Source of the DNA: a virus
IMG/VR virus record: IMGVR_UViG_3300019776_000961
Coordinates: 32,001-96,000 of that record
Reading direction: 5' to 3' (one strand)
DNA length: 64,000 nucleotides
The notes under the pieces were generated by a model. The model made no database searches, was not told the DNA's origin, and worked only from the letters and a program-made list of their open reading frames with translations. The stretch's first letter is position 1. Every line of letters starts with the position of its first letter. Shown piece by piece: positions 12,170-25,800 of the stretch. The position numbers and the translations under genes are program-made.

Positions 12170-12793
12170 TTGGGAATGTTCGATACAATTTACTGTAAGA
12201 AAAAGCTACCGCTTTCCAAGGAGCTCAAGAAGCTTAAGGATATAAAGTGGGAAGAGCTTGATTTTCAGACAAAGGACTTAGACTGCACTCTTACTGATTA
12301 TGAAATTACAAGGTCAGGAAAGCTTCGCGTACATAAGCATGAACGTGAATGGGTCGATGATGACAATGCCTTTCTTAAGGGATATTTGAAGTCTACTAAG
12401 GACTGGTGGGAGGATGAAACCTTTACCGGTACTATTGATTTTTATACCAGCTTGACAACAGGTCCAGAAGGTGTTAATATACTAAATGCTCATAATATCC
12501 CTGAAAATGAAGATATTCAAGGTGATGATTGGTGGGTTGAATTTACCGCAGAGTTTGTAAAAGGAAAGCTAACTGAACTTAAGCTTCTGAAGGCGACTTC
12601 TGAACCCGCTAAGATTCGCATTATGCGTGACCGTGAATGGGCTCTAGAGAGAATTGCAGAAGAGAAACTTCTTAAAAACCGAATTCGTCGTTTCTTGAGA
12701 AAGTCAAAAACCTATTGTAAGTTTACAAGGAGTCTTAATAACAATTTTCAAAAACTCTCTAGTAAGATACAACATTTTCTTATTAGACTCTGA
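12170..12793 (+). CDS. conserved hypothetical phage protein (MGMFD family)
   Basis: TTG start after SD AAGGAGG; MGMFDTIYC...FQTKDLDC.L..Y pattern. Confidence 0.7.
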   Translation: MGMFDTIYCKKKLPLSKELKKLKDIKWEELDFQTKDLDCTLTDYEITRSGKLRVHKHEREWVDDDNAFLKGYLKSTKDWWEDETFTGTIDFYTSLTTGPEGVNILNAHNIPENEDIQGDDWWVEFTAEFVKGKLTELKLLKATSEPAKIRIMRDREWALERIAEEKLLKNRIRRFLRKSKTYCKFTRSLNNNFQKLSSKIQHFLIRL

Positions 12794-12810
12794 TCTTTAA
12801 TAAATATTTT

Positions 12811-13259
12811 GGGGGCGTACTGGCTTCGACTTATACTCGAAACTTGTATTGCACGCAGTGGTTGATCACCTGGCCACTATAAAAGGTAATCAAAACATAA
12901 ATGCTAAGACTAAAGTCTCTGCAATCCTTGCCAAGGTAAAGAAGGCAGCTAACACAATCACAGAGTTCTGTCTCTGTGACGAAATGGCTCCTCTCGCTAT
13001 CGCAGCCTAAGGAACCAAAAGGGATCCTATTAAACTTTTGGAAATAATAGTAGGTAGAGTAGTACTTGTGATACTCATAAAATAAGTGCAAGGGGTGGTA
13101 TGTGGTCCTCATTCACACATACAGGTAGGACTCTAAACATGGATAGGTCGCTGGTGCCTGGTTACCTTAAGTCAACCAAAGTACGAAAGCCGGCTAAGCG
13201 TGTAGATGTACAAGCCTAACAGTATAAACACAGGGGTTCGACTCCCCTCGCCTCCACCA
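12811..13259 (+). ncRNA. ssrA: tmRNA, 449 nt, one-piece
   Basis: GGGGGCG/CGCCTCC-ACCA acceptor stem with G3-U wobble; GGCTTCGAC 5' motif; T-arm AGGGG-TTCGACT-CCCCT; pseudoknot 1; tag frame 12903-13010 ending LAIAA-stop. Confidence 0.93.
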
Positions 13260-13307: not shown

Positions 13308-13382
13308 GTTCCCATAGTGTAGCGGTCAGCACCAGCCCCTTTCACGGGCTTAGCAGGGGTTCAAATCCCCTTGGGAATGCCA
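13308..13382 (+). tRNA. tRNA-Glu(UUC)
   Basis: Cloverleaf: GTTCCCA/TGGGAAT, anticodon stem AGCCC/GGGCT, loop CTTTCAC, encoded CCA. Confidence 0.92.
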
Positions 13383-14956: not shown

Positions 14957-15442
14957 ATGACAACAAACATAACACCATACACAGTTGGCAGGATCTTTCC
15001 TGCTACAGGCTCGGGATTCAGCCATCTCCCGGCTCTGTTTAATGAAACATGGCTAAGCGATGTCTTTAAGGACTTCGATAAAGCATTTGATATTCCAAAT
15101 GCTGTCTATCCTTACAACATCGTGTCAGAAACCGATCCAGACGGTAATCCACTAACCTACTACATCGAAGTAGCGCTAGCGGGCGTTGGAAAGGATAATA
15201 TTAACGTATCGGTCAAGGAGGGCAAGCTCGTGATCGCCGTTAATAAGGAAGAGGTTGAATATGATGAGACAATCCACTTCCATCGTAAAGGCATTAGCCG
15301 CAGAAAGGGACAATTGTCCTTCTCGCTTAATGACAATACGGATGTAAAGAACATCTCATCAACATACACAGACGGGCTACTACGAGTTAAGGTACCTGTT
15401 GTGAAACCGGAGGTACAAAATATCAGTATCGAGGTTAAATAG
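14957..15442 (+). CDS. hsp20: small heat-shock protein (Hsp20, alpha-crystallin domain)
   Basis: YPYNI, IEVALAG..KD.I.V, H.KGIS.R, YTDGLLRVKVP; SD AAGGAG. Confidence 0.92.
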   Translation: MTTNITPYTVGRIFPATGSGFSHLPALFNETWLSDVFKDFDKAFDIPNAVYPYNIVSETDPDGNPLTYYIEVALAGVGKDNINVSVKEGKLVIAVNKEEVEYDETIHFHRKGISRRKGQLSFSLNDNTDVKNISSTYTDGLLRVKVPVVKPEVQNISIEVK

Positions 15443-18972: not shown

Positions 18973-19896
18973 ATGGCAAGTCTCTATTCGTTACCAACAT
19001 CTGCTGTAGCTAGTTCTATCTATCTGTCAAAGAACTTAGATACAACAAAGGATATCGTTGTATCCTTTGATTACGCATGTTATGGGTATCAATCACAGGG
19101 AAGCGAAGGATTTAACGTTTTCTTTGTAGATTCAAATGCATATACAATAAATGGTGGTAGTCCGGGCCCTGGACTTTGTTACGCTCCTACGTTCGGTATA
19201 TCAGGTGTCAATTCACAAGGGCAAACCTTAACATCTTTCAGCGGTGTTTATCTTGGTGAGCTTGGAATTGGTTTTGACTTAACGGGTAACTATGGAACAT
19301 CTGCTTATGGCATAAATGGTTACCAAGACGGTATACCTAATAGTGTTTCTATCCGCGGTTCCCAGAACTTTCAATACAATCTTTATTACAATTCAGGAAA
19401 TCTTACAGCAAGTAGTTACCCTATACCATTGTCTCTATATCAGCAGGTAACTAGTGTTGATGATGTGCAATTTTATACTGTGCGCATACGGTTAACGGAT
19501 TTCTGTAAGACAATTTATATCGACTGGAAGCAACCTGGCGATCTCTATTATACTAATTATATTACTACCGCTCTACCTGAGGAATGGCCTGGTACAGTCA
19601 ATTGCTGTCTAGGATTTGCAACAGGTCTCACTGGTACCTGTTTTTCTATTAAAAATTTTAATGTAAACGGTATATTCGCAACTACAAGTGCTGCGTCAAT
19701 AACATATACATGGACTTATTCTAGTGCAAGCTACCTCGGTCAGACACCAAATCCTGCTGCATTATCTGTTCTTGATACTGTAACAATAAGAAATGCACCA
19801 CCGTGGAACAATTACCCTTCTCTCATCAATATTACATCAGATGGTACAGCTCCTCTTCAGAATACAGATGGATACATTATCATAAACTATACATAA
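18973..19896 (+). CDS. L-type lectin/ConA-like virion protein
   Basis: VSFDY...GFNVFFVD...GPGPGLCY...LGIGFD..GN legume-lectin-like pattern. Confidence 0.55.
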   Translation: MASLYSLPTSAVASSIYLSKNLDTTKDIVVSFDYACYGYQSQGSEGFNVFFVDSNAYTINGGSPGPGLCYAPTFGISGVNSQGQTLTSFSGVYLGELGIGFDLTGNYGTSAYGINGYQDGIPNSVSIRGSQNFQYNLYYNSGNLTASSYPIPLSLYQQVTSVDDVQFYTVRIRLTDFCKTIYIDWKQPGDLYYTNYITTALPEEWPGTVNCCLGFATGLTGTCFSIKNFNVNGIFATTSAASITYTWTYSSASYLGQTPNPAALSVLDTVTIRNAPPWNNYPSLINITSDGTAPLQNTDGYIIINYT

Positions 19897-22829: not shown

Positions 22830-25800
22830 ATGGAGGTTGTCGCTCTTAGCTCAGTAAACTATATAGGTTTATCATCATCTTATATCGATGATGCAAAGCT
22901 TAAAATTAATCAAAATATCTTTTATACTGAAGATGGTTTAGAGATACCATATGTGCATGCATATGAAAATTTAAACGACAATACAATTAATAATTTTTCA
23001 AATTTATTTCTTACCGATACAAAATTACTCTCGAGTACATTTTATATAGAAGATCTCAAGCCAATCGAGGATCCTGGGTTTTCAACATATTTAATAACCA
23101 ATGCAATCGGTAATATCACCGATAATTCACGCTATCTCGTAGTACAGGAGCCTGGTATTGAAGAGAATACAGCGATCTGTACATTCACTGGTACACAAGC
23201 TCTATTTGATAATAGATACATGTTTGACATAGTATTTCTAAACGGTAGCTTATGTAAGATAACTCATGAAAATGAAAATATCACAAGATATCTTACAGTT
23301 GACTATTTGGGTAATTTAATTTTTACAAAGGACGTTCAAGCTGATTATCTCGGAGACTTGAGTCCACAAATTTTTTACTATACATATGACAGAAATAGTC
23401 AGTATATTACTTTTTGTACAAATGTAAATGATATTGTAAAGGTGTTGGCTTATGACCCTGCTACATTAAATTTTACTCTCAATGATTTTATCACAGGAGC
23501 TGATGTACCGTTTACAACAAGATCTATTTTTAGATGCTTGCCGAGACCTACAACACCAAATACGGCATATCTTTTTGATCCTTGGGTTTCATATAAAAAA
23601 GATCTCAAAACTAATACACAAAACATTAATAAAGAGAGTAGTTTTCAAGACGTAAAGTCTAATTTACTCATTAATAATGAATTCTATCCTGTAACAGGTT
23701 CTGAAATGCTCGTTAATGTCCTGTCTCTTAAGAATACAAGTACACCTGAAAATTACCAATCTCGTAATAATCCTTTTCAATCGAGTAAATCAACCCTATT
23801 AACCGGGTCACCTATTAATAATCGCGAATACAAGAGACTCTTTACAGGGTCTAATCAAAAATATGGTAATGATAATATTACTCTAGGTTATGAATCATAT
23901 ACTACAGATATTGTATTACAAGCTGACAATATTACCTATTTCCATATACCTTATAATTTCTTTCCCTTCATACAGCTCAATATTAATGATTCTGGTTTAA
24001 TTGAAGCAGGTAGTATTGCCGGTGATCACCCACTTAAAGCTGATAAAGTATTTAAAAAACTTACAAATGCTGAAAGCACGTCACCGTTTGGTGTAGTAAC
24101 AGATGAAGCTGATGGTTATTTTTTATGTAGCTGGCTTTCAGGTAACTGGGATGTAAACACAAAGCCTGTATGGATGGATAGATATTACAACCCATCAAAA
24201 ATATCTTTCTTTAGTGCACTCACAACTAATCCGTTTCAAGCAATTACATATACTTCACAAGCGGAGTGTCTATTTACAAGTGTTGCGAATATACTGGGTC
24301 ACGTTGATGTTTTTGATAAACCATCTGATTTAATTTTTGAGCCAAGTGCGTACTACGCATACCACCACTATGGTAAGAGTGGTGTACAAAAATATGTAAA
24401 CTCGCTTGAACCATTTTCGATTTCCGATAATTTTAATTCCTATCTTAATACAGATTATACACCTGTAATTACAAATAACCTCGTGCCTTCTACAAGTGCA
24501 TATGTGTTTGATGGTAACAGATACGCTATCACAAAGAGTCTTTCTGCAATTCAAAATAATGGTCAGTTTACATTGAGTTTCTGGGGATCTAATGAAGATT
24601 GGACAGTACCATTTGCTGAACAAATAATAGGTAATTATTCTAGCGATGGCTTTGGTATTTTTAATCAAAATATCATTACACCAACATTATTTGTTAATTC
24701 AATAACTGGTACGTACGTGTTAAACTCCGATCTCAAGCGTATCAAAACAATTCAATACGGTGGCGATACAGTATACAATGTAATTAAATTCTTACACACG
24801 GATGATTATTACGTAATGTTTAATAGTGGAAATTTTGCAAGATACAATAGTATCGATGATGCGATAAAAAATATCTACGATGTTAGATTACAGTATGCTA
24901 AAACAATTGATTATACTCAATCAACATTATATGTAGTATGTTCTGCTAAGCAGTATTCAACGACGCAATCAGACCAATTTATACTTGCTATCGATCTGCC
25001 AACAATGACAGTTGATGATATTACTCAAGATCTTCTTAATTATGAAACAGCAGTATTTGCTAACGATAGCAATGCGGGCTGGGATTGGAATCAACCTGCA
25101 ATTATCTCGCTCAATAACGCAAGTACAGTAGATTATTATGATAAAAAATTGTATTTAACACCAGGTGTAGTCTCCAGACGTGTTGATGATACGATATATT
25201 ATCTTAAAGATGGTGATACGATTGCACAATGGAGTCAAATCACTAACGCTACAGTTAATGCAGTAACTACAGCTTTTAAATCATATAATTCTGGTATCAT
25301 AGATTTTAATATTGACTTTGACGGTAATTTTTGGATTCTCGATAACAATAACAGTTATTATAAATTTACACCAGCTCGAGAATTTGTTCTTTCTGGTACA
25401 ACTACAAATAATAGCTTTTTTAATTATAAAATTGGATTTACTGCAGATCTTATTAATGGTGAATATAAGGAGCAAGTACTTCTCATGCAGCAAGGTAGCT
25501 TGAATATACCACCAAATCCGTTTAGTAACTATAACTACAATATTATAACTAATGACACACCTGCTCTTAATTTTGTAACTGATTATGGTGAAACAATGTA
25601 CGCTAGCTTGTATAGGTCTCTTTCAGCCCCTGGTTTATTATTGAGTATACTCGATACCAAAGGTCAGGTTCTATCAAGTAATACATATATATCACTAACC
25701 GGCTCCTCTTTTGAACCTACAAATTCAGAGTATTTACGTAAAATAGTTAGCGTTCAATACCCCACACCTAGCTTAAACGTAAAGACAGTAATGACAAATG

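Follow-up and report, generated by a model that had tools for sequence, protein, structure and literature searches.

We consider it likely that the RNA described here is a functional, one-piece tmRNA of a T4-like freshwater phage of about 200 kb, derived from Verrucomicrobiota, made late in infection, and encoding a bipartite 35-residue tag whose extension is itself functional. The gene lies within a stretch of 64,000 nucleotides (the window), which belongs to a 193,220-bp IMG/VR virus record judged 88% complete by CheckV. The individual parts of this reading differ in strength, and we set out below the evidence that bears on each of them, together with the alternatives that we have weighed.

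The RNA is an intact tmRNA with an alanine identity pair. A preliminary description, made from the letters of the window, had called it a phage tmRNA, and this identity is borne out by a full-length match to Rfam RF00023 (model positions 1-374; 102.1 bits, the gathering score being 47), which has exactly the ends first proposed (Table 1), and by stems that are supported by covariation. The tRNA-like domain is complete, with a 7-bp acceptor stem, a T-arm, a CCA end encoded at 13257-13259 and no anticodon arm, and in the acceptor stem G3 (12813) is placed opposite a U (13253) to give the alanine identity pair (G3:U70), a G:U that is invariant in six of six sequences. The structure was tested on seven distinct homologues using the acceptor stem, the T-arm, three P2 segments and both stems of pseudoknot 1 (PK1); 94.9% of the positions were paired, compared with 40-54% for controls in which the partners were slid by 1-3 columns, and 11 pairs were altered on both sides. 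The P2 segments are 100% paired with four pairs altered on both sides, as is the first PK1 stem with one such pair (G-C to A-U), and the second PK1 stem, where the alignment has gaps, is 71% paired with four pairs altered on both sides. The region of PK2 to PK4 is aligned to RF00023 with low posterior and with large insertions.

The gene sits among phage tRNA genes, with a tRNA-Glu(UUC) found by both ARAGORN and Rfam on the same strand 48 nt downstream (13308-13382). The neighbouring gene at 12170-12793, which is syntenic with the tmRNA in relatives, matches only a PHROG of unknown function and viral hypothetical clusters, and no Pfam family. A gene for a small heat-shock protein (Pfam HSP20, E = 6e-17) is found on the same strand at 14957-15442, 1.7 kb downstream of the tmRNA. 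ARAGORN did not call the tmRNA at 12811-13259 when run on the window, and it also misses five of the eight relatives on which it was run (L007, L010, L016, L030 and L034), to which Rfam gives 92-114 bits. A blastn search of the tmRNA against the GenBank phage collection returned no match.

Table 1. Coordinates of the tmRNA gene, its parts and associated elements; positions are those of the window unless a genome and contig handle is given.
Feature	Position	Strand	Basis
Late-type promoter box AATAAATA, core TAAATA 12801-12806	12799-12806	+	4 nt before tmRNA G1; motif kept in relatives
One-piece tmRNA gene, 449 nt, CCA end encoded	12811-13259	+	RF00023; homologues in related virus contigs 53-115 bits
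Acceptor stem 5' arm, partner 13249-13255	12811-12817	+	Helix 1 100% paired (alignment)
Pseudoknot 1; stems 12857-12861/12874-12878 and 12864-12871/12884-12891	12857-12891	+	Alignment, covariation
U(-5) A(-4) frame-setting context and resume codon GCU (12903-12905)	12898-12905	+	RF00023 alignment; UAAAY-GCN in all relatives
Tag reading frame, 35 codons	12903-13007	+	Translation; third-position excess in both halves
8-bp hairpin in frame (12958-12965/12972-12979), apex of long irregular stem ~12925-13013	12958-12979	+	MFE fold
Tag stop TAA	13008-13010	+	Translation; homologous place in relatives (alignment)
3' part of P2, T-arm (GGGG-UUCGACU-CCCC) and acceptor 3' arm with ACCA	13200-13259	+	RF00023; helices 2-4 and 7 100% paired
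ORF starts with TAAATA 5-6 nt upstream	7642, 11234, 14221, 17200, 19912, 22830, 28093, 30627, 41668, 54772	+	
ORF starts with TAAATA 5-6 nt upstream	63037, 54702, 48850, 45673	-	
~81-nt tmRNA-model matches in Verrucomicrobiota genomes	G100:C62:18902-18982, 19608-19688, 24274-24354; G133:C149:10451-10531; G052:C8:93717-93797; G085:C102:1984-2064; G079:C48:2033-2113		

Relatives of the gene were reached by two routes: the neighbouring ORF led to related virus contigs with an adjoining tmRNA, and two DNA patterns taken from the tmRNA recovered 13 and 27 virus stretches, most of them with Rfam tmRNA matches of 53-115 bits. The 5' signature of the tmRNA is matched by 27 related virus stretches, among which there are 11 distinct tags of 32-35 residues; every intact, readable copy carries a long tag, the others being cut or interrupted. 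The tags fall into three subtypes, namely A (the window, L026, L029, L032 and L035), with 35 residues, B (L007, L015, L016, L030 and others), with 33-34, and C (L010, L020, L028, L031, L034 and L041), with 32-34. A more distant phage tmRNA of 416 nt (114.6 bits) is present in L033:10311-10726 (-) and L039:11003-11418 (-); its tag is strongly basic, ends A-V-A, and has 38 residues by comparative reading or 31 from the start chosen by ARAGORN. Insertions are seen in some of these genes. A group I intron (RF00028, 78-83 bits) lies against or within the 3' T-loop region of the tmRNA in L027:3896-4100, L029:3301-3525 (-), L035:2277-2501 (-) and probably L026; relatives that share the window's tag are among these, and the window copy is intron-free. 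At L036:5071-5400 the tmRNA is intact through the first PK1 stem and is then interrupted by an insert, at whose start there are a separate TAAATA box and an ORF initiated by ATG; this may represent a mobile insertion or a disrupted gene.

The point at which translation would resume had been proposed to be the first GCU after PK1, and the comparative data agree with this. PK1 is followed by an 11-nt A-rich linker ending in UAAAU, and the GCU at 12903 is aligned by Rfam, with high posterior, to the consensus resume codon GCa. The UAAAY-GCN context is conserved in all homologues, and in L020 and L028 ARAGORN independently calls a tmRNA with the same resume point and a long tag. The same -5 and -4 positions are occupied in E. 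coli by U85 and A86; conservation of A86 is almost universal, and this base determines the reading frame (PMC2481249).

From this codon the 35-residue tag of the preliminary description is encoded by an open frame, and the pattern of codon changes indicates that all of it is translated. Between the window and L029 there are seven differences within the frame, all of them at third positions and all synonymous (7/7), and when L016 is compared with L030 the eight changes in the first 14 codons are synonymous without exception. Across six phylogenetically independent sister pairs of homologous tags, the differences in codons 1-16 are distributed 7/6/26 over the three codon positions (binomial p = 2e-5), with 21 synonymous versus 10 non-synonymous codon changes, and those from codon 17 to the end are distributed 15/14/37 (p = 1e-4), so that the whole frame has 44 synonymous versus 28 non-synonymous codon changes. 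Three-base periodicity cannot arise from RNA pairing, which argues for a coding explanation of the pattern, and the inclusion of codons 1-16 in the third-position excess argues that the whole frame is translated and selected as a peptide. On these comparisons the 35-codon frame is under purifying selection and is translated along its entire length, the protein itself being a prediction. Two other possible sources of the coding signal were considered and rejected: in the antisense ORF at 12831-13112 the variable positions would be first positions, which is the wrong phase, and the TTG (12849) from which a small ORF could be read falls within P2/PK1.

An alternative already named in the preliminary description is that an internal alanine codon such as GCU 12948 serves as the resume site, in which case the tag would have about 20 residues and the codons upstream would form an untranslated spacer. 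Such a tag would open A-N, as do many bacterial tags, and ARAGORN favours an internal start for the distant L033 type. However, the internal site is unconserved in subtypes B and C and is without the U(-5)A(-4) context, both Rfam and ARAGORN place the resume codon at the first GCN, and the synonymous, third-position pattern, including that between L016 and L030, is found in the very codons which would here be left untranslated. Internal resumption is scarcely credible in the face of these observations, and we continue with the reading in which the tag starts at the first GCU.

The tag looks bipartite. Its last ~10 residues consist of an acidic patch followed by L-x-(x)-A-A and resemble a complete tag of the candidate donor lineage discussed below, and this host-type end appears to be preceded by a phage-specific, helix-prone extension of 22-24 residues. 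Five columns are invariant across the family, namely Ala1, Ala7, a Glu near position 21, and a Leu and an Ala near the end. AlphaFold2, given a 12-sequence alignment, predicts a helix over residues 2-34, with pLDDT values of 77-84 over residues 1-20 and of 50-62 thereafter. The hydrophobic moment over 18 residues exceeds that of shuffled sequences in subtype A (p about 0.01-0.05) and in subtype C (p < 0.04, mostly < 0.005), and does not clearly do so in subtype B. The Lys-rich helix and CxC motif that were described at the outset hold for the window's own subtype but not as conserved features: net charge is +1 or +2 in A, -9 or -10 in B and -2 to 0 in C, and CxC is confined to A, every tag having one or two Cys at varying positions. 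Lysine richness and CxC are therefore traits of a subtype and not of a conserved core, and the variation in the charge of the extension argues against one common binding partner.

The region that encodes the tag also folds well as RNA. In the window it has an MFE of -37 kcal/mol (z = -3.74), with none of 200 shuffles folding as well, and the 8-bp hairpin that had been noticed within the frame is recovered in this fold at the apex of a long stem. Five of six homologues fold better here than dinucleotide shuffles (z -2.3 to -3.7), and in the other subtypes the apex is formed, at about the same position, by a hairpin of another sequence. The family consensus from RNAalifold over the tag region consists of a small 5' hairpin alone, the large stem being backed by single-sequence folds only. 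In the small hairpin the GC of codon 1 pairs with the GC of codon 7 and covaries with it, so part of the invariance of Ala1 and Ala7 may be RNA-driven. If one considers these folds together with the fact that length (32-35 residues) is better conserved than sequence or charge, it may be asked whether RNA requirements account for the extension, which would enlarge a helix-5-like stem, or whether it is a passive spacer roughly as long as the ribosomal exit tunnel, its amino-acid sequence having no specific partner. We think this unlikely, given that RNA structure does not produce three-base periodicity, that synonymous changes dominate within subtypes and that hydrophobic periodicity is retained in subtypes A and C. 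Since the tag is conserved as a peptide, its role probably goes beyond marking proteins for destruction.

We looked for partner proteins that the phage might itself supply. No SmpB had been noted in the window, and none was found there, in the whole 193-kb record (88% complete) or in five related records, one of which is 100% complete. Neither ClpP nor a Clp-type AAA_2 ATPase was found in the 193-kb record, at the same level of completeness, so that a partner gene may lie in the part that is missing. One of the five related records does encode ClpP (L109, G157:C1:97808-101296, 95.7 bits), this being the record of L028, whose tag ends Y-A-L-A-A; with ClpP in only one relative of five, a phage protease is no general partner. 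Phage-encoded SmpB, ClpP and Clp ATPase were therefore rejected as the partners of this tmRNA.

At its C-terminus the window tag ends I-A-A and those of its relatives L-A-A, M-A-A or A-A-A. What had been taken for a normal ClpXP-type degron has the terminal A-A, which is kept in all aligned tags, but not the classical L-A-A. Since position -3 is I, M, A or L and not the invariant L of the host, recognition of the phage tag by ClpX may be weakened rather than kept. The degeneracy of this position, together with the want of a phage SmpB, could be taken to mean that the RNA is mainly a decoy, which titrates host SmpB or competes with the host tmRNA, and whose tag content is irrelevant or is a poor degron that spares the products; a TLD-only phage tmRNA (DS6A) has indeed been proposed to inhibit trans-translation (PMC4131195). 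The present RNA, however, conserves the full MLD, PK1 and the resume context, its peptide is under strong purifying selection, for which a decoy would have no need, and the terminal A-A is retained in all aligned tags, so that we regard a decoy as very unlikely and treat the RNA as a tmRNA that would tag proteins.

The origin of the gene was approached through a 25-nt signature from the 5' end of the tmRNA, which was searched for in 185,579 species, each represented by a single genome. There were 16 matches, where about 0.3 would be expected by chance for 21 specified bases in 596 Gb on both strands. All are in Verrucomicrobiota, nearly all labelled Chthoniobacterales, Chthoniobacteraceae or Spartobacteria, on contigs of up to 1.45 Mb. 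The bacterial tmRNAs that bear the signature are about 355-360 nt long with tags of 10-11 residues (e.g. ANDYEDLALAA and ADHQDLALAA), and in blastn comparisons the phage RNA shares ~65-78% identity with them over the 5' ~100 nt and the 3' ~70 nt, the sequence between being unalignable. We also took an even sample of 151 Verrucomicrobiota genomes, in which 137 tmRNAs were found, all of 345-404 nt and none longer; tags were read in the 30 best-scoring of these and in 10 longer ones, and are mostly of 9-11 residues, with 13-16 in one group, one of 18, and 20 in two genomes. The two with 20 residues (L097 in G117 and L098 in G093) are from 0.9-Mb genomes with tmRNAs of 395-404 nt, and their tags end in an unusual L-L-G. 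Several Verrucomicrobiota genomes contain, in addition, tmRNA-model matches of only ~81 nt (46-63 bits, most over the cut-off), some of them clustered on one contig, which may be mini-tmRNAs of the tRNA-like domain only or tRNA-like elements.

The phage tmRNA and those of Chthoniobacterales and other Verrucomicrobiota thus share the 25-nt signature, found in this lineage only, the architecture of PK1 and the resume context (an A-rich run, UAAAY and GCN), and the phage tag is, in its C-terminal third, similar to the acidic, LALAA-ending tags of these bacteria. They differ in that the bacterial genes are of 345-404 nt with tags of 9-11 residues (rarely 13-20), compared with 449 nt and 35 residues in the phage, in that the centre from the tag to PK4 cannot be aligned by blastn, and in that the phage gene has a T4-type late box and not a bacterial promoter. 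Taken together, the tmRNA was apparently captured from a Verrucomicrobia host of the Chthoniobacterales type by an ancestor of this phage group. The present host would likewise be placed in Chthoniobacterales or Verrucomicrobiota from the similarity of the tmRNA alone, and the true host lineage could be an unsampled one.

If the true host lineage were equally long-tagged, the long tag would simply have been inherited and there would be nothing phage-specific about it, as the preliminary description had pointed out. Bacterial tags of up to 35 residues do exist (PMC8012679), the sample covers only about 150 genomes of Verrucomicrobiota, and a few of the tags of 13-20 residues in that phylum open A-K and end MPLAA in a manner reminiscent of the window tag. 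Against this, the genomes that carry the 25-nt signature have tags of 10-11 residues, no tmRNA among the 137 exceeds 404 nt, and tags are long in all intact, readable virus copies. With candidate donor tags this short and none above 20 residues in the sampled phylum, we consider inheritance highly improbable and take the long tag to be phage-specific. Tandem duplication was examined as a route by which the tag might have grown, and is at most hinted at: an in-frame 42-nt self-match is significant only in the L007 subtype (3/1000 codon shuffles) and is absent from its sisters and from the window subtype, and an offset of 33 nt that recurs in subtypes A and C falls short of significance.

The late promoter that had been proposed from a TAAATA 4 nt before the RNA finds support in the rest of the genome. 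The upstream motif is conserved in relatives as TTTnATAAATA, where G1 is the sixth nucleotide after the box (a 5-nt gap in most). Within the window 14 ORFs of at least 60 codons, tail-fibre-like genes among them, have a TAAATA 5-6 nt ahead of their ATG, with one ORF at each other spacing observed; so short a gap leaves no room for a Shine-Dalgarno sequence, which suggests that the late mRNAs of this T4-like phage may be largely leaderless. A homologue of gp55, the late sigma factor of T4, is encoded elsewhere in the record (G000:C1:130618-130845 (-), outside the window), with 42% identity over residues 43-118 (E = 1e-9). With a TATAAATA-like -10 box ~6 nt upstream of the predicted start and a gp55 of the phage's own, the element corresponds to a T4-type (gp55) late promoter. 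From the spacing between the box and G1, the predicted first nucleotide of the transcript is G1 in most relatives, whereas in the window it is G1 or the base after it, so that the RNA would be made with its mature 5' end and with little or no 5' leader. Metatranscriptome contigs from three runs in three studies fall inside the tmRNA only, one at 12966-13107 with two mismatches and, from relatives, 12871-13055 and 13080-13255; in one metatranscriptome relative, codon 6 has switched from TCT to AGC, both serine codons. These are assembled contigs from which ends, strand and level cannot be read, the absence of flanks is not evidence and DNA could have been carried over, and they give a weak hint that the tmRNA is expressed.

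The mechanism that we propose would run as follows. After its capture, the gene would be transcribed from its own gp55-type late box, with a start no more than one or two bases from the mature 5' end. The G3:U70 pair implies that host AlaRS would charge the RNA with alanine, and, the phage being without SmpB, host SmpB and EF-Tu would presumably bring it to stalled ribosomes. Translation would resume at GCU 12903, adding 35 templated residues, whereby ribosomes stalled on damaged or truncated messages would be rescued and their products tagged, keeping ribosomes free late in infection. That the RNA might replace host trans-translation and re-route or sequester the products, as first suggested, is more speculative. 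As to the extension, it may act as an extra recognition element which changes or broadens the choice of protease or adaptor for the rescued chains, a possibility to which we give somewhat less than an even chance. Long tags of the Mycoplasma type can carry several recognition signals and confer another protease specificity, and Gur and Sauer reportedly found in 2008 that the long, multi-signal Mycoplasma tags were directed to Lon; the length of the phage tag, in contrast, would have arisen or been kept only on phage DNA.

Several precedents limit the novelty of these findings. Published tags range from 8 to 35 residues (PMC8012679), which places the phage tag at the top of the known range, although the long tags of bacteria belong natively to their cellular lineages. 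Among phages, tmRNAs have been described in cluster C mycobacteriophages, in Bacillus phage G and in many huge phages (PMC4131195; PMC7162821). Mycobacteriophage Bxz1 has a 437-nt tmRNA with an acidic tag that we confirmed to be of 25 residues (tmRNA Website). As in the phage studied here, the Bxz1/cluster C tmRNA is of one piece, lies among tRNA genes and has a long tag (PMC4131195). The Bxz1 tag also resembles subtype B in being acidic with an Ala-rich hydrophobic end, but it ends A-L-V and is 10 residues shorter. The phage group and the host phylum of Bxz1 are unrelated to those considered here, and no relationship in sequence can be detected between its tmRNA and the present one. The huge phages of Al-Shayeb et al. 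2020 (PMC7162821) are likewise large and uncultured with translation-related RNAs that include tmRNA; some carry SmpB, unlike the present group, and the search was made with ARAGORN, the program that misses the window gene and five of eight relatives. Tag lengths are not discussed in the passages of that survey considered here. Pipelines based on ARAGORN miss most of this tmRNA family, which implies that phage tmRNAs are under-counted. What appears to be new is the evidence from sequence comparison that a long tag is translated and selected from end to end, the short-tagged candidate donor, the bipartite tag and the lead to a host lineage.

It is tempting to consider these long phage tags, 32-35 residues (perhaps 38) in the Verrucomicrobia-derived family and 25 in Bxz1, in a common light. 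Phage tmRNAs may repeatedly evolve long extensions that are selected as peptides and are absent in their donors, and which would alter the fate of every rescued, truncated polypeptide of host or phage, whether by switching the protease or adaptor, by sequestration or by protection against ClpXP overload late in infection; we offer this generalisation as a conjecture that may well prove wrong. The tag of a tmRNA is commonly regarded as a short degron of ~10 residues. The present phage lineage seems to have taken a short-tag tmRNA and to keep a tag about three times longer under purifying selection across deeply diverged subtypes, which raises the question of what functions a tag may have besides the recruitment of ClpXP, and how these would benefit a phage late in infection. 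The tmRNA signature may, in addition, serve as a lead to the host lineage (Chthoniobacterales, Verrucomicrobiota) of uncultured lake phages of 110-220 kb.
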